Positions 9,947 to 21,096 of a stretch of DNA of 21,096 bases are shown piece by piece. The notes under the pieces are model-generated. The model was not told the DNA's origin. It did not search any database and saw only the letters and a program-made list of their open reading frames with translations. Position 1 is the stretch's first letter; each line of letters opens with the position of its first letter. The stretch spans positions 1 through 21,096 of the forward strand of contig JBGQMB010000018.1 in NCBI GenBank assembly GCA_041500405.1, given 5' to 3'. Made by a program: the position numbers and the translations under genes. The stretch is from Candidatus Micrarchaeia archaeon. GTDB lineage: Archaea; Micrarchaeota; Micrarchaeia; Anstonellales; J096.

Positions 9947-9968
9947 CTCTTTGCTTCACCATGATAGC

Positions 9969-10994
9969 GTGATTTCGGCGCAGGGAAAAAAGCTTGTCCT
10001 TTCAGAGAGGGCAGAGCAGAGCAAGGCCCTGAACTTCGGGCTCGGCGAGCTGAAGGGCGGAATCCTTTACCTTGAGCCGGTTGAGGCGCTCTACCTTCAC
10101 GAGATAAAGGGGTTTGAAGCTGAAAACATCGGGACGCTTTTGGAATCTGTCGAGGGCCTGCTGGACAAATACATCGTTTTCAGGGACCTTTCAACGCGCG
10201 GATACAGGACAGGGTTCAGGGCCGGGCCAGCCGGCCAGCCAACAAAGCCCAGCGAATACAGGGGCCAGAAGGCCTCGTTCCAGGGAAAGGCGATAAGGGG
10301 CGCCGCGTCAAAGGGCCTTGTTATCTGTGAAGGCGGCATTGACCTTTACGGAAAATACTGGTTCGGCCAGCATGGCGTATACAAAAGGGAGGGGCTCGGA
10401 AGCGCGCTCATACTTGACCAGTTTGAGGCCGAGTTTTTGAAAAAGCTCGGCTTATTGAAATATTCCGGAAAGCTGAAGAAGATAAGGTATTTTGACGAAT
10501 ACTTCAAGATATACACTGAATGGAGGAGCCTCGGGTTCATACCAAAGGCGGGGTTCAAGTTCGGCGGGGACTTCAGGATATACTTTCCTGGAACAACGCC
10601 ATCCGAGTTTGAGCATTCGAAGCACGTGATGCAGGTTTTCCCTGAAAAATACACGATCGGCGCCGGGGAATGGGCGCGCGCGGTAAGGATTTCGCACGGC
10701 ATAAGGAAGACGTTCATACTCGCGATACCGGAGCTGGTCTCAAGGGTTCCGTTCAAGCCGGACATGTTCGCCGAAAGGGAGGGCGCGGGATACGCGGTAA
10801 AGGTTTTCTACGAATCAGACATCATAAGCGGGAGGGCGCTCCATTCCGCATTGTCATATTGCGCGGAAAAGGGAATCAAGATGTTAATAGCGATTGTGGA
10901 TAGGGACACATCGGTCTCCTATTACACGGTTGAGCGGGTCCTTTTGGAAGGAAGCAAGAACATGTATTTTGAGATTGGCTGGTTCAGGCCCTAA
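9969..10994 (+). CDS. endA: tRNA-intron lyase (splicing endonuclease), three-unit epsilon2-like architecture
   Basis: N-terminal unit LYLEPVEALYL..KYIVFRDLSTRGY. Catalytic unit with GFKFGGDFRIY (Tyr), EHSKH (His) and RISHGIRK (Lys). Extra C-terminal unit MLIAIVDRDTSVSYY. Inserted loop YWFGQHGVYK. GTG 9969 chosen from TATA spacing; the ORF track uses TTG 9951. Confidence 0.9.
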   Translation: MISAQGKKLVLSERAEQSKALNFGLGELKGGILYLEPVEALYLHEIKGFEAENIGTLLESVEGLLDKYIVFRDLSTRGYRTGFRAGPAGQPTKPSEYRGQKASFQGKAIRGAASKGLVICEGGIDLYGKYWFGQHGVYKREGLGSALILDQFEAEFLKKLGLLKYSGKLKKIRYFDEYFKIYTEWRSLGFIPKAGFKFGGDFRIYFPGTTPSEFEHSKHVMQVFPEKYTIGAGEWARAVRISHGIRKTFILAIPELVSRVPFKPDMFAEREGAGYAVKVFYESDIISGRALHSALSYCAEKGIKMLIAIVDRDTSVSYYTVERVLLEGSKNMYFEIGWFRP

Positions 10995-11148: not shown

Positions 11149-11949
11149 ATGGCAGAAACAGTCCAACTGATAAGAGGGAAGAGCCTGGAAATATTCAGAA
11201 CAAACAGCAACGGCCTTTCTGCGCGCGACGCCATAAGGAAGGTCGGCGAGGCAGGGCGTGTGATCGCCTCAAATGCAAGGATTGGCAAGGCGCTTGCAGG
11301 AGATGAATATAAATCAATAAAAGCGGTTTTCCCGTGCTGGACAGGCACGATGACCGCATATGTTGAGCCAGGAACCGCGTTCAACAAGAGCAAAATGTTC
11401 AGCAAGGAACTTCAGGCCATAGTTTATACTGATCCGGAAACAAAAGAGCGCTGGATATTCCCAGTAGGGAATTATAGAAGTGAGAAGAACGCCATCCTGG
11501 TTTCAGAGCATCCGGACTACTCGCTTGAAATCAACGGAAAGGAAATTCTGGTAAAATCAAGCGTCATTGACATTATTCCAAACTTCCCCGAAAAGGACGG
11601 CTGGTATCTCACAGACCCGAAGCATGGCATACCGGTTGGAAGTGAAGTCGGTTCAGATAATCCGAAATCAAGGCATCTGTGGCGGGTTGATGGCGCTGGC
11701 AGGGTCGGCCCTGTTGCCCGCGGCTGCGGCAGCCTCTGCTACGGCGGCAGGGGGCTCGTCCTCATCGGCGACGGGCCGTCGGTCGCTTTCGAGGTGGCGG
11801 TAGAAGCCCCCGAAGGGGGCGCGGCAGTCGAAGCCAAGCCCGCACAGATAACTGTGACAGTGAGCGGCGATACGCTGACTGTCAAGGGAACTCCTGAACA
11901 GCTGAAAGCCGTCCTGGAAATCATCAAATCCGCAAAAAGGCAGACTTGA
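11149..11949 (+). CDS. DGR target (variable) protein, 266 aa, probable C-type-lectin-fold variable domain plus a constant C-terminal extension
   Basis: Contains the VR encoding GPVARGCGSLCYGGRGLVLIGDGPSVAFE, followed by 51 constant residues. ATG 11149 is supported by TATA spacing; the track's TTG 11050 extension runs through the promoter. The fold is inferred. Confidence 0.88.
   Translation: MAETVQLIRGKSLEIFRTNSNGLSARDAIRKVGEAGRVIASNARIGKALAGDEYKSIKAVFPCWTGTMTAYVEPGTAFNKSKMFSKELQAIVYTDPETKERWIFPVGNYRSEKNAILVSEHPDYSLEINGKEILVKSSVIDIIPNFPEKDGWYLTDPKHGIPVGSEVGSDNPKSRHLWRVDGAGRVGPVARGCGSLCYGGRGLVLIGDGPSVAFEVAVEAPEGGAAVEAKPAQITVTVSGDTLTVKGTPEQLKAVLEIIKSAKRQT
11706..11792 (+). repeat. DGR variable region (VR)
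   Basis: CGGCCCTGTTGCCCGCGGCTGCGGCAGCCTCTGCTACGGCGGCAGGGGGCTCGTCCTCATCGGCGACGGGCCGTCGGTCGCTTTCGA aligns gap-free to 12154-12240 with 67/87 identity. All 20 differences are opposite TR A. Confidence 0.97.
11806..11820 (+). other. DGR homing hairpin/cruciform with GAA triloop, inside the coding sequence
   Basis: GCCCCC-GAA-GGGGGC is a perfect 6-bp GC stem starting 14 nt after the VR. It also encodes A-P-E-G-G. Confidence 0.8.
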
Positions 11950-12000
11950 ATAGTGCCCGTAACGCCTTGATTTTTAATTCCTTGTTTTATACTCATAATT

Positions 12001-12135
12001 CCCAGAGTGTGAGGCTGGGCCACACACCCGTCTGTAGTTCCGGCTTAAGCCGGATGTAAAATTCAGCCGCAACACACAGTAAGCCGGTTTGGCGGAAAAC
12101 GTGAAGCGGCGGTGCAGGCTCTTTTGGGCCTTTTT
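12001..12135 (+). ncRNA. Putative structured 5' leader of the TR-containing DGR RNA
   Basis: Non-coding interval downstream of an AT-rich TATA-like tract (11971-12000). It contains the perfect 16-nt palindrome TCCGGCTTAAGCCGGA (12039-12054), a possible long-range pairing GTGTG-A-GGCTG (12007-12017) with CAGCC-GCAA-CACAC (12064-12077), and the hairpin AGGCTC-TTTT-GGGCCT (12116-12131). Confidence 0.45.
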
Positions 12136-12153
12136 GGCAGATGGGTTACCTTG

Positions 12154-12240
12154 CGGCCCTGTTGCCCGCGGCTACAACAACCTCAACTACAACAACAGGA
12201 GGAACGTCAACATCAACAACAGGCCGTCGGACGCTTTCGA
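12154..12240 (+). repeat. DGR template region (TR)
   Basis: CGGCCCTGTTGCCCGCGGCTACAACAACCTCAACTACAACAACAGGAGGAACGTCAACATCAACAACAGGCCGTCGGACGCTTTCGA. It has 26 adenines, with nine AAC codons in the VR reading frame, and ends 33 nt before the RT start. Confidence 0.97.
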
Positions 12241-12273
12241 ATGACCCAGCCCCCTCTGGAAAAGGCGGAGCAT

Positions 12274-13344
12274 ATGAAGACATACAGGAACCTGTATCCG
12301 CAGCTTTGCTCCTATGAAAACCTTGTGCTTGCGTTCAGAAGGGCAAGGAAAAGGAAGACCCACAAACAGTATGTCGTTGAATTTGAGGCGCGCCTTGAGG
12401 AAAATCTCATGCGGCTTAAGCACGAACTGGAAACGTTTTCATATCGGCCGGCGCCTGTTGCCACATTTATAATAAAGGACCCGAAGACAAGGCGGATAAG
12501 CGCATCGGATTTCCGCGACCGCGTCGTGCACCACGCGCTATGCAACATAATCGGCCCGGTTTTCGAGAGCAGGTTCATCTTCGACTCGTTTGCCAACAGG
12601 AAGGGCAAGGGAACACATTCGGCGATAATAAGGTTTGAGAAATTCATGCGGGGCGTTTCGCTGAACAGAAGGAATTGTACGGACGATATGCATCCACACG
12701 GCAATGCGGTAATCGGCTATGCCTTGAAAGCGGACGTAAGGCACTATTTTGACACCGTGGATCATCGGATTCTGCTTAGCATAATCAAGCGCCGCATAAT
12801 GGATCCAAGTGCGCTTTGGCTGATAAGGATAATCCTCGAGCATCACAAGTCCGCCGCCCCAGAAAAGGGCATGCCGCTCGGCAACTTGACATCTCAGCTC
12901 TTTGCCAACATATACCTGAACGAGTTAGACCAGTTCGTGAAGCATGCGCTGAAGGCCAGATATTATATGCGCTATGTTGATGATTTTGCCATTCTCCACC
13001 GCGACAGGAAAACGTTGGAATGCTGGAAAGGCGGAATATCCGCCTTTCTTGAGCAATGCCTTAATTTAAGCCTGCATCCGGAAAAATCAAAGGTCATTCC
13101 GCTCAGGAATGGCATAACGCTGCTTGGCTTCAGGGTATTCTGCCATTACAGGCTGCTCAAAAAGAGCAACGTCCGCCGCATCTGGAAACGCCTCAGGTTA
13201 TTCAAGCGGAAATTCAATAAAAGCGAAATGGAGAAGACAGAGATTGAGCAGAGCATGGCCGGCTGGTTCGCCTATGCCGCTTTCGCCAATTCATACAGCC
13301 TGAGGCAAAGGGTCGCTGCACGTCTAAATGGGCTTTTTGGATAG
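12274..13344 (+). CDS. DGR reverse transcriptase (356 aa)
   Basis: KTRRISASDFRDRVVHHAL, DSFANRKGKGTH, ALKADVRHYFDTVDH, the DGR-type GMPLGNLTSQLFANIYLNELD, catalytic YMRYVDDF, LHPEKS and GITLLGF. GGAG RBS at 12267-12270 precedes ATG 12274. Confidence 0.96.
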   Translation: MKTYRNLYPQLCSYENLVLAFRRARKRKTHKQYVVEFEARLEENLMRLKHELETFSYRPAPVATFIIKDPKTRRISASDFRDRVVHHALCNIIGPVFESRFIFDSFANRKGKGTHSAIIRFEKFMRGVSLNRRNCTDDMHPHGNAVIGYALKADVRHYFDTVDHRILLSIIKRRIMDPSALWLIRIILEHHKSAAPEKGMPLGNLTSQLFANIYLNELDQFVKHALKARYYMRYVDDFAILHRDRKTLECWKGGISAFLEQCLNLSLHPEKSKVIPLRNGITLLGFRVFCHYRLLKKSNVRRIWKRLRLFKRKFNKSEMEKTEIEQSMAGWFAYAAFANSYSLRQRVAARLNGLFG

Positions 13345-13508: not shown

Positions 13509-13760
13509 ATGAACATACTTGTAAGGCTCGAGGGGGTTCCGGAAAAGGCCCTTGAATTCATGATAAGCAAGGGATTCTTCAAGACAAAGAACGAGGCGAT
13601 AAGGGCGGCCCTGGTCGGCATGGCAAAGGAATATTCGCTGCTCAACGACGAGGATTTCCTTGCCGCAATAAAGCTGCGCGGCCTTGAGGCAAGGCGGAAA
13701 GCAGGAAAGCTCAGGACCGAAACCCTTGGCGAAGTCAGGAAAAGATACGGGATAAAGTGA
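13509..13760 (+). CDS. Ribbon-helix-helix antitoxin (83 aa)
   Basis: MNILVRLEG..ALEFMISKGFFKTKNEAIRAAL fits the RHH (G-x-F/Y-x-x-x-x-E-A-I-R) pattern. GGTGAGG RBS upstream. The stop overlaps the next start (GTGA). Confidence 0.8.
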   Translation: MNILVRLEGVPEKALEFMISKGFFKTKNEAIRAALVGMAKEYSLLNDEDFLAAIKLRGLEARRKAGKLRTETLGEVRKRYGIK

Positions 13761-14017
13761 AGTATGAAATAATATTCGGCGAAGGATGGGAGCGTTTTTT
13801 CTCCTTTCTCGACAATTCAGTAAAGAAAAACATCCTGCGCAGAATAGGGCGCATGGCCGAAATGCCGCCAGGAAGGCATCTCCGCTTCGGCTCCGGGTTC
13901 TTTGTCGAGGAAATCGGGCAGTACAGGATACTGTATGCCGTTGATGGGCAAACAAAGATAATCTATTTTGTCGGGACGCACAAGGATTACGAAAAATTCA
14001 TAGGCTTGAGGAAATGA
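13757..14017 (+). CDS. RelE/ParE-family toxin (86 aa)
   Basis: MKYEIIF....ERFFSFLD....KNILRRI...IGQYRILYAVD..TKIIYFVGTHKDY fits the RelE fold pattern. Translationally coupled to the antitoxin. Confidence 0.82.
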   Translation: MKYEIIFGEGWERFFSFLDNSVKKNILRRIGRMAEMPPGRHLRFGSGFFVEEIGQYRILYAVDGQTKIIYFVGTHKDYEKFIGLRK

Positions 14018-15274: not shown

Positions 15275-18200
15275 ATGAAGGGCTATGTATACGCAACCAA
15301 GATGTTCAGCGTTGCGTTTGTAGCGTTGGTGCTGTTGCTAGCAGGGCTTAGCTTAACTTCAGCCAATGGCGGAACCTCAATCCTTGATGAAATAAACGCC
15401 TCGCTCTCCAACGCGACGGAATGCCAGGACGGCTCGATGTGCCTGCTCAACGGCTCTATGCTGAACGAGAGCGTTCCGCAAAATGATACGGAGATTCCGG
15501 CAAACGAGACTCCGATTTTGTCTGTCAACGAAACCTGGCTATGGCTGGATGTGGACGGCGAAACCGCCAACGAGACTGCTGCAAATGGCACAGAGTCCAA
15601 CACCCCTGGGCTGAACGAAACAATCTTGAACGAAACCGCTGTTGAAAACGAAACCCTTGCCCCAGAGCCGCCAACAATGGAAACATGGCTGGACTCCAAG
15701 CCGCCTATAAACGGCTCCTTCAAGGACATTTCCGCAAAGCGCATAAAAGCCAGCGGGAAGACCAAGCTGTCTTCAGGAGGATACAAGTCCGAAATCGACA
15801 CATCCGCATACGACATGCTGGCAAAGAACAGGACCGTGCGCATAATCGTGAAAGCGGACAAGATGGAGCTGCACAGCAAAAACATGACAGAGTTGGGTTC
15901 CATCGATGGCAGGGGCCTGCAAGTGCTTGAGATGAACCAGAAATGGCTCGCAACCCTTGTGCAGTCCGGCGCAACAAAGATTTACCTTGACACGGAGATG
16001 TCCCTTTCGCTTGATGAAAGCATCCCGCTGATAAGGGCGGATGCGGCAAAGGACTCTTTCGGCGTTTCGGGAAGCGGCATCGCAATCTGTTTGCTGGACA
16101 CTGGCGTGGACTACAGCGACGAACAATTTGAGGGCACTGCTGCAAGCGGATACGACTTCATAAACAACGACACAGACGCCATGGACGACAACGGCCACGG
16201 CACGCTGATGGCATCGGCGATACACAGGATTGCGCCAGGCGCAACGATTATCGCAGTGAAGGTGCTTGACAGCTCAGGCCACGGCTACGCCTCTGATGTA
16301 ATCTCCGGCATAGACTTTTGCAGGGAAGTTGCGGCAAACAACGACATAACAGGGGACAAAATCAAAATCATCTCAATGAGCTTCGGCGGCGGGAATTTCA
16401 CAGGATACTGCGACTCAAGCCCAATTGCAGCAGCAATCCAGGATGCATATGACGCCGGCATCCTTTCGGTCGCATCTTCGGGCAACGGCGGATTGGATGC
16501 GATAACGATGCCTGCGTGCGCAGCAAGCGCAACAGCGGTCGCGTCAACGAACAAGTCAGACGCGATATCCTCTTTCTCAAATATAAACCCGATGGTGGAC
16601 CTGCTTGCGCCGGGCGAGGAGATAATTGCGCAGGGGCTTGGCGGCGCGCAAACGGTTTCAGGAACCTCAATGAGCGCAGCGCACGTCTCAGGGGCAGCGG
16701 CATTGCTGTTTGAGACGGATGGCGACATGGCTCCTTTTGACGCAGAGGAAAGGTTCAGGGCAACAGGCATACTTGTCCAGCAGGGCAGCGTATCCTACCC
16801 GCGCATAGACGCGCTCAATGCCCTTATGAACAATCTTACTGGCATACCAGAAACGCCGGCAGTGAACGAAACAAACGAGACGTACGAGGGAGGGTTCGAG
16901 ACGGCGGCATGGGCCGACGCAACGTTCGACAGGTGCAAGAACATAACCGTATGGAACACGGGAGCTACGGTGCTGACAAACTTTCCTGCGCTTGTCAACC
17001 TCACCTATGACAGCGACATGATGGCGGATTATTCAGACCTGCGCTTCTACAACACGTCATGCGGTGGCGACCCCGCCAGCAAGCTTGACTATGAAATAGA
17101 AAACTACACGGCGTCAAACGCATTGATTTGGGTTCGTGTCCCGTCAATCGCAGTCGGCAACATAACCAACATATCGGTCTATTACAAGAACAACACGGCA
17201 CACAACGGAGAGCAGAACAAAACAGGCGTGTGGAACGTGAACTATGTCGGCGTATGGCATTTGCAGGAACAGCCAAATGCCACTGCACCGCAAATGAAGG
17301 ACAGCACCGCCAACACCAACGACTGCACAACGGCAGGCTCAATGACAGGCGCACAGCAGGTCGCGGGGAAGGTTGACGGAAGCCTGAACTTCTTGGGAAC
17401 AGATGATACCGCAAACTGCGGAAATGACGCAGAACTGCGCATATTGGGGAACCTGACTGTTGAGGCTTGGGCAAAGCCGAGTGCCAATGCAACAACAATA
17501 GGCATTTTTACAAAGATGAACGCCACAAGCCCATATACCGGCTGGCAGTTGAGGAGGCAGAGCAACAATACATTCGCCTTTGTCACGACAAACACCACAG
17601 CCGACACCATATTCAGCAACCTGACATATACTGATAATAACTGGCATCATATCGTAGGAACGCTGGCAGGAACGCAGAAATTCCTGTTTGTTGATGGAGT
17701 AAGACAATTGTCAAATAGCACATCGCAAGGCATGGTTTCAAACTTTGAGAACGTTACGATAGGCAGGAGATATGCAGACGGAACAGGCTGGTGGACTGGC
17801 GGGATTGACGAGGTTCGCATCTCCAACACCACAAGGACGCCTGAATGGATTAACATGACCTATTCCATGATGGCGACAAACAATGGACGGCTTTCGTTTG
17901 GCGCTGAACAAAACCAGCCGACGATAGACACAGCCAGCCCGGCGATAGAATTCGCAACGCCCACTGACAACTCCAGCACGACTGTGAACAGGGCATTCAT
18001 CCAAACCAACGTTTCTGCCGAAGATTCCGGCGCAGGGCTCAAGAACATAACCATCTACCTCCACAATGCCACAGGCGCGCTGATTAACTCCAGCACAAGC
18101 GCAACAAGCCCGCTCTTCGCCAACTTCAGCGTGTCGGCGGCTGGCACATACTACTTCAACGCAACGGCCTATGACAACGCAGGCAACCTCAACAAGACCG

Positions 18201-21096
18201 AAACAAGAAATATCACGATAGCACCCGCGGCTTCGCCAACAGTGGCGCTGGTTTCGCCGCATGGCAACTACACCAACACAGATGGGAATGTCTCGTTCAT
18301 ATTCAACGTTTCCTCATCCCAAAACATCCTGAACTGCACGCTGATAATCAACAGCACGGTGAACCAGACCATTGCGGATGTTGCCAGGGGCCAGAACCAG
18401 GCATTCAATCTCACGGGCCTTGAGGCAGGCTGCCTGGACTGGGGCGTAAACTGCATGGATGGCCTTGGGAACAGCGGCGCCTCGGAAACAAGGCGCCTGG
18501 ACCTGGTGCTGGCCACGGAGTTCAGCGGCGAGTCCACAAACCTGTCGCAGGTTCCGGATTTGTCCAGCATAGCCAACCTAACGCTGGAGAAGCCCTTGAT
18601 TGCCAAACTGGAGTTCCAGGAACAGGTAGACCTGAGCTGCGGGGCGGACCTTGACGCCGCCGTAAAAATCGCGCCTGCATCGATTTCCGTAAACTCGACC
18701 AAGGAGCCCAGGCTCAACAAGAAGGCGCGCCTGTATTTTTTCAATCTTCCATACGCGCAGACGCCCATACTGCTGAAGGACGGCGCGCCGTGCGAGGACT
18801 GCACCATAATGTCCTATATAAACAGCACTCTCAAAGCGAACGTGACTCACTTCACAAACTACACAACCGGCGCAAACAGCAACCTCACAATATGGGACGA
18901 GACTGACGGTTTGGGCGGCTCGCAGACAAGATACGCCGGAAACCAAACCCGCTTCTTTGCGAACTACAGCAACAGGACAAGCAATGCGCCGATAAATGGC
19001 AGCGGAATAGGCTGCAGCATCGCATTTTCCGATTCAGGCAGCAACATGCCATACAATGCGACCTCAAAGCTTTACGAGTACAACAGGAGCTTCGGCTCCC
19101 CGGGCGCATATGCGTGGAACGTGACATGCAACGGCTCTTCCCTGGGCTACGAGGTTCTGAACGCCACGGACACGGTTTCGGTTTCCGCGCCAGGCACTGT
19201 GCAATACAACTTCAGCCAGGGCGGCGCGGCAAACAAGGCATACCAGGGCAACACCTCGGGCGCCCTGCCGCCGGCATCAGGGCCGGCCGTACTGAACGAG
19301 ACTGAGTTCAACGCCACCCATTATGCCCAGATAAACAGCTCAGACAGCTCCTTTGTGCTGACTACATCGTCATCAGGCTACAGGACGCAGCGGTTCCTTT
19401 TCAACATAACCCAGGACAGGGCTTCCCTGCTCCAGATAAACATAACCTGGAAAGGCAACAGCAGCGGCAATACTGCCAGCAGGTGGGTCAGCATATACGC
19501 GTGGAACTTCACAAGCAGCAGCTGGGGCAGCCCCCTTTTCAGGTACAACCCGAGCGCCAGCACATTGTTCAATGTATCGCTCAATTCCGGGTTCAGCGAC
19601 TACGTGAACGGCTCGGGCGCGTTCACGTTCATTGCAGAGGGCGAATCCGCGACCGCGCTGACGCTTGCAGGCGACTATGCGGCGCTGACGGTCTATTACG
19701 ATTCCGTTGCCCCAACCGCGGCGCCGGCAAGCCCTGCCGACGGAAACATTACAGCAATTGACGAGGCTGATTTCGTCTGCAACGCAACTGACGACGCCAG
19801 CCTGAAAAACGTGACGCTATATTGGAATTATTCAGGGGCCTGGCAGGCTAACGCAACAGCCAGCATAACCGGCATATCCAACTCAAGCACATTCTCAAAG
19901 TCCCAACTTGCCAACGGCGCCATCTCATGGAACTGCTATGCATGCGACAACTCCGGCAAGTGCTCATTTGCGGAATTCAACTCCACCGTTATCGTGAACT
20001 CCTCAACAAGCACGATTTTCTTCGACGGCTTCGAGTCAGGGAACCTGGACCAGTGGAATAGGACTGCTGTATCAGGCGCGAACAACTGGACCGTGCTTAC
20101 GACAAGCCCCTACAAAGGGACATACCACGCGCAGTCCAACCCGGTAAGCACGTCCAACCCGGCAAGCATAATGGACATCAACATAAGCACGTCCGGATAC
20201 AACAACATAACATTCAGCTATTACAGGTGGCTCGTGCTCGGCACCGCGCTCAAGAACTTCACAGTGAAATGGTACGACGGCGCAAGCTGGAATACCCTGG
20301 AATCAACGGTCAATGTTGACGAGGCAAACTACACCTACAAAACGTTTGCCCTTCCTGCATCCGCAAGCAAAAACCAGAACCTCCGCATCAGGTTCGAGTG
20401 CACGTCAGGCGCGACCGGGGACTTCTGCAGGCTTGACAACGTCAAGGTCACTGGCATCGCGGTTTCCACGGTTCCGATTGTAAATTCCGTGTCAGTTTCC
20501 CCGGACCCGGTCGCTGCCAGCAGCGGGACAAAGATAACCGCGAACGCGACAGACGACATAAACATCTCTTCAGTCATATTGGAGATTATGGACACCAACT
20601 ACAGCATGGCCCAGCAGTCGCCCATAGGCGGCAGCTATGCGAACCTGTTTGAGGACGGCTTTGAGTCAGGGAGCGTGGCCTCCAACTGGGCCATGAACGG
20701 CACAAAATACTGGTCTGCCTCCTCTGCAAGCGGAGGCTATTCGGCCCAGATACAGCAAAGCGGCGCAGGGGAGCCTAGCTCGATAGAGGCAAGCATAAGC
20801 ACAGCAGGGTACCAGGACATCACAATCAGCTACCGCAAGCAATTGGTCGGCCTGGACGCCGCTGATGCGTTCACGGCGGAGTGGTACAACGGCTCTGTCT
20901 GGACGACGATTGAGGATAAGGGAAGCGGCTCTGAAGACGACGCAGACTTCATCTATGCCAATTTCTCGCTTCCTGCAGGCGCCAGCAACACCGCTTCATT
21001 CAAGATAAGGTTCACGTGCGAATGCGGCGCAGTGACCGAATACTGCAGGATAGACGACGTCGATGTCGGCGGGTCGCACCTCTCGGGCTCAACAGA
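15275..21096 (+). CDS. Giant secreted multidomain S8 (subtilisin-like) peptidase / surface glycoprotein, >1940 aa, 3'-truncated by the window edge
   Basis: Absent from the ORF track because it has no stop in the window. Manual translation gives a signal peptide (MKGYVYATKMFSVAFVALVLLLAGLSLTSA) and the triad D (LLDTGVD, 16097), H (DNGHGT, 16196), S (SGTSMSAAHVSGAAALL, 16667) plus the oxyanion SSGN. Then a DUF2341-like segment (SDLRFY..LDYEIE..IWVRVP), a LamG/ConA-like domain (WHHIVGT..LFVDG..GGIDEVRISN), several Ig-like beta modules and two F-x-D-G-F-E-S-G modules. Confidence 0.9.
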   Translation, partial: MKGYVYATKMFSVAFVALVLLLAGLSLTSANGGTSILDEINASLSNATECQDGSMCLLNGSMLNESVPQNDTEIPANETPILSVNETWLWLDVDGETANETAANGTESNTPGLNETILNETAVENETLAPEPPTMETWLDSKPPINGSFKDISAKRIKASGKTKLSSGGYKSEIDTSAYDMLAKNRTVRIIVKADKMELHSKNMTELGSIDGRGLQVLEMNQKWLATLVQSGATKIYLDTEMSLSLDESIPLIRADAAKDSFGVSGSGIAICLLDTGVDYSDEQFEGTAASGYDFINNDTDAMDDNGHGTLMASAIHRIAPGATIIAVKVLDSSGHGYASDVISGIDFCREVAANNDITGDKIKIISMSFGGGNFTGYCDSSPIAAAIQDAYDAGILSVASSGNGGLDAITMPACAASATAVASTNKSDAISSFSNINPMVDLLAPGEEIIAQGLGGAQTVSGTSMSAAHVSGAAALLFETDGDMAPFDAEERFRATGILVQQGSVSYPRIDALNALMNNLTGIPETPAVNETNETYEGGFETAAWADATFDRCKNITVWNTGATVLTNFPALVNLTYDSDMMADYSDLRFYNTSCGGDPASKLDYEIENYTASNALIWVRVPSIAVGNITNISVYYKNNTAHNGEQNKTGVWNVNYVGVWHLQEQPNATAPQMKDSTANTNDCTTAGSMTGAQQVAGKVDGSLNFLGTDDTANCGNDAELRILGNLTVEAWAKPSANATTIGIFTKMNATSPYTGWQLRRQSNNTFAFVTTNTTADTIFSNLTYTDNNWHHIVGTLAGTQKFLFVDGVRQLSNSTSQGMVSNFENVTIGRRYADGTGWWTGGIDEVRISNTTRTPEWINMTYSMMATNNGRLSFGAEQNQPTIDTASPAIEFATPTDNSSTTVNRAFIQTNVSAEDSGAGLKNITIYLHNATGALINSSTSATSPLFANFSVSAAGTYYFNATAYDNAGNLNKTETRNITIAPAASPTVALVSPHGNYTNTDGNVSFIFNVSSSQNILNCTLIINSTVNQTIADVARGQNQAFNLTGLEAGCLDWGVNCMDGLGNSGASETRRLDLVLATEFSGESTNLSQVPDLSSIANLTLEKPLIAKLEFQEQVDLSCGADLDAAVKIAPASISVNSTKEPRLNKKARLYFFNLPYAQTPILLKDGAPCEDCTIMSYINSTLKANVTHFTNYTTGANSNLTIWDETDGLGGSQTRYAGNQTRFFANYSNRTSNAPINGSGIGCSIAFSDSGSNMPYNATSKLYEYNRSFGSPGAYAWNVTCNGSSLGYEVLNATDTVSVSAPGTVQYNFSQGGAANKAYQGNTSGALPPASGPAVLNETEFNATHYAQINSSDSSFVLTTSSSGYRTQRFLFNITQDRASLLQINITWKGNSSGNTASRWVSIYAWNFTSSSWGSPLFRYNPSASTLFNVSLNSGFSDYVNGSGAFTFIAEGESATALTLAGDYAALTVYYDSVAPTAAPASPADGNITAIDEADFVCNATDDASLKNVTLYWNYSGAWQANATASITGISNSSTFSKSQLANGAISWNCYACDNSGKCSFAEFNSTVIVNSSTSTIFFDGFESGNLDQWNRTAVSGANNWTVLTTSPYKGTYHAQSNPVSTSNPASIMDINISTSGYNNITFSYYRWLVLGTALKNFTVKWYDGASWNTLESTVNVDEANYTYKTFALPASASKNQNLRIRFECTSGATGDFCRLDNVKVTGIAVSTVPIVNSVSVSPDPVAASSGTKITANATDDINISSVILEIMDTNYSMAQQSPIGGSYANLFEDGFESGSVASNWAMNGTKYWSASSASGGYSAQIQQSGAGEPSSIEASISTAGYQDITISYRKQLVGLDAADAFTAEWYNGSVWTTIEDKGSGSEDDADFIYANFSLPAGASNTASFKIRFTCECGAVTEYCRIDDVDVGGSHLSGST
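20015..21070 (+). repeat. Internal duplication of a ~145-aa beta-sandwich module in the giant protein
   Basis: Copy 1 (~20015-20455): IFFDGFESG..ISTSGYNNITFSY..WYDGASW..FALPASAS..IRFECT..FCRLDNV. Copy 2 (~20645-21070): LFEDGFESG..ISTAGYQDITISY..WYNGSVW..FSLPAGAS..IRFTCE..YCRIDDV. Confidence 0.8.

Follow-up and report, generated by a model that had tools for sequence, protein, structure and literature searches.

The stretch of DNA analyzed here (the window) comprises 21,096 nucleotides from a Candidatus Micrarchaeia archaeon and carries a DGR on its forward strand. The target gene (11149-11949, +), a 266-aa ORF with 73 homologues, the named ones from Micrarchaeota, contains a variable repeat (VR) at 11706-11792 (+), whose variable positions span 11726-11783. 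The corresponding template repeat (TR; 12154-12240, +) lies beyond a non-coding spacer (11950-12153; longest ORF 15 aa, no avd gene). The reverse transcriptase gene (RT; 12274-13344, +; RVT_1 E 2.7e-20) begins 33 nt past the TR end. VR and TR differ at 20 of 87 nt, and all 20 mismatches coincide with TR adenines, of which there are 26. The VR/TR pair and the adjoining RT, together with IMH/IMH* and hairpin signals, identify the locus as a DGR. We placed the RT start at MKTY by comparison with relatives, there being another in-frame ATG upstream, at 12241; an overlap between the TR and the RT start codon was considered and dropped, since relatives place the RT start further down, at MKT.

The VR ends in an IMH-like sequence, TTC GAG GTG GCG (11788-11799, +), recognized by comparison with the IMH TGGGGT given in PMC4372165. 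It is followed by a DNA hairpin, GCCCCC-GAA-GGGGGC, with a 6-bp stem and a GAA loop (11806-11820, +), which codes for A-P-E-G-G. The linker encoded here (residues 221-233; 11809-11847, +) is predicted to be flexible, with low pLDDT and no secondary structure. Since both the IMH and the GRA-loop hairpin are inside the gene, the reading frame runs through both of them and the hairpin would become a hinge. A 6-bp hairpin occupies the same place, with compensatory changes, in 13 of 13 gene copies having a cis TR (duplicate and near-identical loci included) and in 10 of 58 copies without a TR, which suggests that the APEGG linker is mostly a DNA signal. The window and 106 loci, together 107 sources, supplied 130 gene copies for these counts; 71 copies were parsed by motif and 59 were dropped because of contig ends or an unparsed motif. 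The stability of the window hairpin is no better than that of shuffled sequences (z -0.5), so its support is conservation, not energy. At the TR side the IMH*-like end reads TTC GAA TGA (12236-12244, +). All 12 of the 12 relatives compared have a TR ending in G(A/G)A ATG AC, as opposed to GGG GTG GC in the VR; the window TR is one A shorter than in all of them, and as a result TGA falls in the VR frame. At the VR end, the window has E215 (11791-11793) at an alignment position where 90% or more of the homologues have G. Judging from the sequence, homing that extended a few bases further would remove both the last strand and the tail.

A first-pass annotation made from the letters alone had noticed that the ORF continues for 51 residues past the VR, and this is indeed the case: the run after E215 is as quoted and the ORF ends in ...EIIKSAKRQT. 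The same annotation held that no TR codon can turn into a stop by A-to-N change and that the tail is therefore always retained. The former statement is correct: of 30 TR codons read in this frame, none can. The latter holds for A-to-N changes but not otherwise, because just beyond the homology the TR continues as TTC GAA TGA in the VR frame and because the tail has been shifted out of frame in three decoupled relatives. We also considered whether a sequencing error might have removed a stop after the VR, and rejected this explanation. Contigs of runs X2, X3 and X4 cross the VR-tail junction without a gap or a single difference, and the shortened TR end is identical across contigs of X1, X2 and X3, so that neither feature is an assembly error; one of the four runs may be the source sample of the window, and the studies may belong to a single campaign. 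The VR itself is identical among contigs of X2, X3 and X4, although contigs lose rare variants. The X1 contigs break at either end of the variable part of the VR, which is a weak hint only.

The genome holds two further copies of the target gene. A paralogue on contig C3 (33918-34700), 75% identical, has both the tail and the hairpin, and its VR differs from the same window TR at 14 positions, all 14 at adenines, which makes it a remote target of this TR. The other copy, on contig C39 (5985-6704), stops directly after the last strand, has no tail and no longer fits the TR. All three copies have upstream sequence in common. The C3 copy adjoins a tRNA-like gene and a ribonucleotide reductase region. 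The genome, which is 86% complete, yielded no Avd-like gene.

The AlphaFold2 (AF2) model of the whole protein, built from 72 sequences, has a pLDDT of 92 and consists of a globular head, a loose linker and a tail. The head (residues 8-220; 11170-11808, +) ends in strand 214-220 (FEVAVEA), the final strand of a lectin domain. As these residues belong to the domain, the true extension amounts to 46 aa. In VIA-align searches with residues 8-222 the 50 matches listed, which we take to be CLec-fold domains, in part from their titles, have Z of 5.5-7.3. These values are middling, but the match list is uniform. The longest alignments among the matches listed are to the DGR proteins TaqVP (Z 6.8, 162 residues aligned, rmsd 3.9, 10% identity) and AvpA (Z 6.7, 152 aligned, rmsd 4.1, 10% identity). 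The modeled head thus has a C-type lectin fold with the VR at the last loop and strand. The Foldseek check proposed in the first-pass annotation failed to add to this, with no match at E≤0.001 in PDB or viral models for either the protein or the tail. In sequence searches the head has no Pfam, NCBIfam or PDB match, in agreement with the earlier suggestion of an uncharacterized target family, and the profile of the head family does not match AvpA (5IOO) in PDB at E≤10. The uniform CLec list together with the absent AvpA match points to a CLec family distinct from AvpA. In the ESM Atlas the whole protein matches Nanobdellota/Woesearchaeota clusters, and the tail has no match. The protein has no signal peptide or TM helix, as noted before: hydropathy over 19 residues peaks at 1.2, no hydrophobic stretch is present at the N-terminus, and just 1 of the 73 homologues reaches 1.6.

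The tail, designated type A (residues 234-265; 11848-11943, +), was delineated from AF2 models, profiles and pS/pN. It is predicted to form a beta-beta-alpha unit with strands 235-239 and 242-246 and a helix 249-265, at pLDDT 84-91. The same unit is obtained when the tail is modeled alone (pLDDT 86). Being conserved in 20 of 73 homologues as well, it is neither disordered nor unconserved, either of which would have spoken against the first-pass proposal. Pairwise comparison of 18 type-A tails gave a mean pS of 0.79 and a mean pN of 0.39, pS being the higher in 151 of 153 pairs, and synonymous codons are free to vary at invariant residues, which indicates that the tail is kept as protein. The conserved hydrophobic residues occupy three consecutive strand positions (243-245) and seven helix positions.

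A search for homologues and their tails, also suggested earlier, was productive. Of the 73 homologues found, 20 have tail A and 12 have a different tail, B, whereas 41 have neither, though some of the latter may be truncated records. The loci come from genomes that are nearly all Micrarchaeota; no relative was found on viral contigs. Tail B is a longer strand-helix-helix module at the same position on the same head groups. An attempt to relate the two tails by homology was unsuccessful, as only their last helix aligns, with a probability of 17%, and tail B did not match AvpA in PDB. In a phylum survey of 401 genomes tail A occurs in 30 and tail B in 44. All tail-A genomes belong to the window's order, with 28 of 76 genomes of one family and 1 of 16 of the window's own family. 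When the tail profile was compared with 1.84 billion representatives, 46 matches were obtained. Wherever a single stretch scores strongly (34-71 bits), the match is a C-terminal tail, either in the window's family, in another VR-type protein or in a fragment. Secretins, KH proteins and repeat proteins, by contrast, reach the threshold only when several stretches, none above 23 bits, are added up.

At 29 tail-A loci, 29 of the 30 tail-bearing frames place the tail within 9 aa of the C-terminus; 25 frames have full VR-type heads of several groups, 4 are short and 1 (L139) is a weak internal match. Five head groups beyond the window's family bear A, B or both. Adenine-specific TRs adjoin members of three of these groups (L136; L144, L149 and L153; L163 and L168) and are also found beside L142, L152 and L155, while 16 of the 25 loci tested have no TR with adenine-specific mismatches within their 1.5-kb flanks. 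A tree was built from 70 heads belonging to the window's family, with 2 short rows and P0020 omitted. Across it the tail state changes 21 times, compared with a shuffled mean of 27, and the starred branches require 7 changes for A and 5 for B. Tails A and B are swapped among at least six divergent head groups of variable proteins. Either tail is commoner beside a cis TR (12 of 13 copies) than in copies lacking one (26 of 58), duplicates and kin included; the exception is L072, with a cis TR and no tail. In three decoupled copies (L124, L172 and L173) a shift in or beside the hairpin has thrown the tail out of frame but left the head intact, and what was the tail can still be recognized. In other words, the head can persist without the tail. 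Tandem arrays of up to five paralogues with near-identical 3' ends and no RT were observed at L018, L021, L030, L035 and L038. In several of the array copies the tail is reduced to the helix, fused to the last lectin strand, so the beta-hairpin is dispensable there.

Many of these properties have precedents in DGRs of other DPANN archaea. According to Paul et al. 2015 (PMC4372165), nanoarchaeal DGRs have the pair IMH TGGGGT and IMH* TGGAAT and carry GRA-loop hairpins within the target gene; they run no risk of nonsense codons and also serve remote targets. Handa et al. 2016 (PMC5006420) describe AvpA as having an internal VR followed by 46 residues that hold the hairpin and lack crystal density, and as a monomer in solution. 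Set against these descriptions, AvpA (PDB 5IOO) and the DUSEL4 Nanoarchaeota targets are like the window protein in their DPANN host, CLec fold, internal VR, 46 residues past the domain and in-gene GRA-loop hairpin, and also in a similar IMH/IMH* pair, the absence of nonsense risk, remote targets and the absence of a signal peptide. The first-pass annotation had regarded the internal VR as a departure from C-terminal VRs. It is internal here, but this is not unusual, being the norm for nanoarchaeal DGR targets according to PMC5006420 and PMC4372165. Thus, the internal VR, the in-gene hairpin and the stop-free template constitute a known layout. What appears to be new is the head family and the two swappable constant tails, A and B. 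AvpA differs from the window protein in having no sequence match at E≤10 and 10% identity in the structural alignment. Of the AvpA family motifs GXXVVVYAH, HPXXXPFXG and RFXGV the first two are absent from both the window sequence and the family consensus. The AvpA extension was predicted as two helices and proved disordered in the crystal, whereas the window tail is a confidently predicted beta-beta-alpha unit common to several head groups. The window cassette also differs from that of AvpA in having no Avd-like ORF between target and RT. TaqVP (PDB 5VF4), despite giving the longest structural alignment to the head among the matches listed, is bacterial (Thermus aquaticus) and 10% identical, and the match stops at residue 222, with no tail. 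Literature on DGRs in Micrarchaeota, on AvpA and on tails or oligomerization yielded no description of the tails, although Paul et al. 2017 or the AvpA supplement may list the family. The supplement of Wu et al. 2018 (PMC5758913), in which long sequence runs are incomplete in the version available to us, gave no match to GPVAR or GTPEQ.

What might such a tail do? The analysis shows the DGR anatomy, the predicted folds and the conservation, sharing and exchange of the tail; we infer an interaction role, a partner and a cellular location. In the proposed scheme a DPANN-type DGR consisting of target, spacer, TR and RT would hypermutate a binding patch on a cytoplasmic-looking CLec head, with one TR serving two genes, the window target and the remote C3 paralogue. 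The frame passes through the homing hairpin, read as a flexible hinge, and behind it the constant 32-residue beta-beta-alpha tail would complete a beta-sheet with a partner. An incomplete alpha/beta unit having more conserved hydrophobic residues than it can bury alone is most likely a protein-interaction module. Furthermore, a half-domain of two strands, both of its faces carrying hydrophobic residues, calls for a partner, which implies either self-assembly or a single conserved cellular protein. We therefore favor a constant assembly or docking module and give this reading a probability of roughly 55%. Within it, self-association into a dimer or small oligomer, providing avidity for weak variable binders, is our tentative first choice; docking on one conserved cellular partner is a possible but less likely second. 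Sheet completion by a free unit of such shape may be illustrated by MciZ, which according to PMC4929429 is a free peptide adding two strands to FtsZ. This 40-aa FtsZ-capping peptide (PDB 4U39) is likewise a free-standing beta-hairpin plus helix of the same size (VIA Z 3.0, 31 of 36 residues). However, the identity is 13% and the Z is tied with those of unrelated matches, so that we draw an analogy, not kinship or FtsZ binding. Against assembly or docking speaks the monomeric state reported for AvpA (PMC5006420), albeit with a different 46-residue extension, as do the 41 of 73 homologues with neither tail and the lack of any neighbor gene pointing to a partner. The three out-of-frame tails, the helix-only copies in tandem arrays and the low Z (at most 3.0) of every fold match to the tail count against it as well.

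The first-pass annotation had compared the tail with a secretin-N/NolW pattern, and a true ring-building domain of this kind would arrange the variable heads as a ring or attach them to a secretion or pilus machine. The local likeness is real. When 18 tails were compared with Pfam, Secretin_N (PF03958) was the family matched most often, by 11 of them (the best at E 4e-4, which extrapolates to about 21 bits), the secretin DR_0774 is the best PDB sequence match (E 2.2e-5 over two summed stretches) and a GspD N-domain is among the top VIA matches (Z 3.0, rmsd 1.7). The family assignment did not survive, however, as the window tail scores 12.9 bits against the Pfam cut-off of 28.2 bits and other folds match comparably. 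KH_1 is matched by 8 of the 18 tails, the best Pfam match of the window tail is TrkA_C, PDB sequence matches also include a miniprotein designed de novo (1.2e-4) as well as KH domains, and structural matches, all with Z≤3.0, tie at 2.4-3.0 between secretin N domains, MciZ, KEOPS, KH and designed proteins. The Secretin_N match covers profile positions 34-62 of 69, i.e. beta-beta-alpha only, behind an unstructured linker. Secretin N1-N5 domains are beta-alpha-beta-beta-alpha according to PMC12114550, and the tail is without their first two elements (beta-alpha). The KH-like Secretin_N repeat and the window tail share the strand-strand-G-T-x-E-Q-helix ending and the local shape (Z 3.0), but the window has half a domain, in a single copy at the C-terminus of a lectin, and no secretin barrel or export signal. 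Indeed, no secretin domain, signal peptide or TM segment is present in the window protein. Kinship with KH domains was rejected as well: only the last strand-helix matches (best E 0.011) and the tail has no GxxG loop, whereas a KH domain is defined by the whole domain including that loop. The tail is not a member of these families. What it has is a common strand-Gly-Thr-helix ending, and it may work like such a unit; we consider a genuine ring-building domain highly improbable.

Three other explanations have to be weighed against an assembly or docking module. The tail might be a C-terminal signal for export or surface targeting of a binder that has no other signal, acting in host attachment. 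Its invariable place at the extreme C-terminus would fit, and so would the terminal amphipathic helix, which is kept in helix-only fusions and is the sole part common to A and B (at that probability of 17%). According to Roux et al. 2021 (PMC8144416), archaeal DGR targets usually show neither TM nor signal features, most lack a known domain beyond the variable region, and it is left open whether they act inside or outside the cell. Two dissimilar tails would nonetheless have to do the same job, and no export gene is linked to the loci. We know of no archaeal C-terminal sorting motif that is visible in the tail, and consider this explanation unlikely. It is quite unlikely, too, that the tail has a function within the element or in turnover, by binding the RT/RNA complex in cassettes without avd or by setting the half-life of variants. 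Such a role would account for the enrichment of tails in cis-TR copies and their loss in decoupled ones, and avd is absent from the spacer and from the window's genome; on the other hand, tails under purifying selection persist in tandem arrays far from any RT, an Avd-like ORF is present at some tail-B loci, and the cis-TR locus L072 is tail-less. Passive read-through, with the tail hitchhiking on the 3' DNA signals of the cassette whenever a new head is recruited, would explain how unrelated heads came to have common tails behind the VR-IMH-hairpin end and why many homologues are tail-less. Yet the excess of pS over pN and the free synonymous change at invariant residues largely refute it. 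The linker, whose length varies in frame among homologues while the tail is kept, also speaks against it, and we regard read-through as very unlikely.

Returning to assembly or docking, it is tempting to speculate about an antibody-like build, in which a hypervariable lectin head, a hairpin-written hinge and interchangeable 'isotype' tails A and B would plug variants into a shared oligomer or cellular effector. Although this extension is doubtful, if true it would offer the first handle on the function of signal-less DPANN DGR targets. A 32-residue constant module common to several head groups is also a small, expressible bait, whose oligomeric state and partner would point to the function of the class. 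If the tail only self-associates, the outcome would be a modest extension of the avidity theme, which is known from phage DGR proteins.

Several observations concern the tails in other settings. We looked for a tail on an effector enzyme, as in adaptor-coupled conflict systems, and found none among the loci fetched, the only candidates being the weak internal match in L139 and a small protein in L162 (1492-2001, -), which has no VR-type head and carries a C-terminal tail B. Free-standing tail genes were rejected likewise: of eight short frames, three are frameshifted behind an intact head, two come after a VR-like end, one of these at the edge of a contig, and three have neither a clear head upstream nor a good start. 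Different head groups stand in tandem within one locus at L013 and L090. Across loci no neighbor gene is conserved but the RT and, in a few, the Avd-like ORF; this putative, four-helix-bundle-like ORF lies near some tail-B loci (L010, 8665-9129; also L004, L015, L050, L052 and L056). In the window itself, a tRNA intron endonuclease gene (9951-10994) lies directly upstream of the DGR. Directly past the RT are a small antitoxin-like ORF and a RelE/ParE-like ORF (13509-14017), both under family cut-offs, and further downstream (15275-21094) there is an open-ended gene for a secreted subtilase of 1940 aa with DUF2341 and LamG domains.
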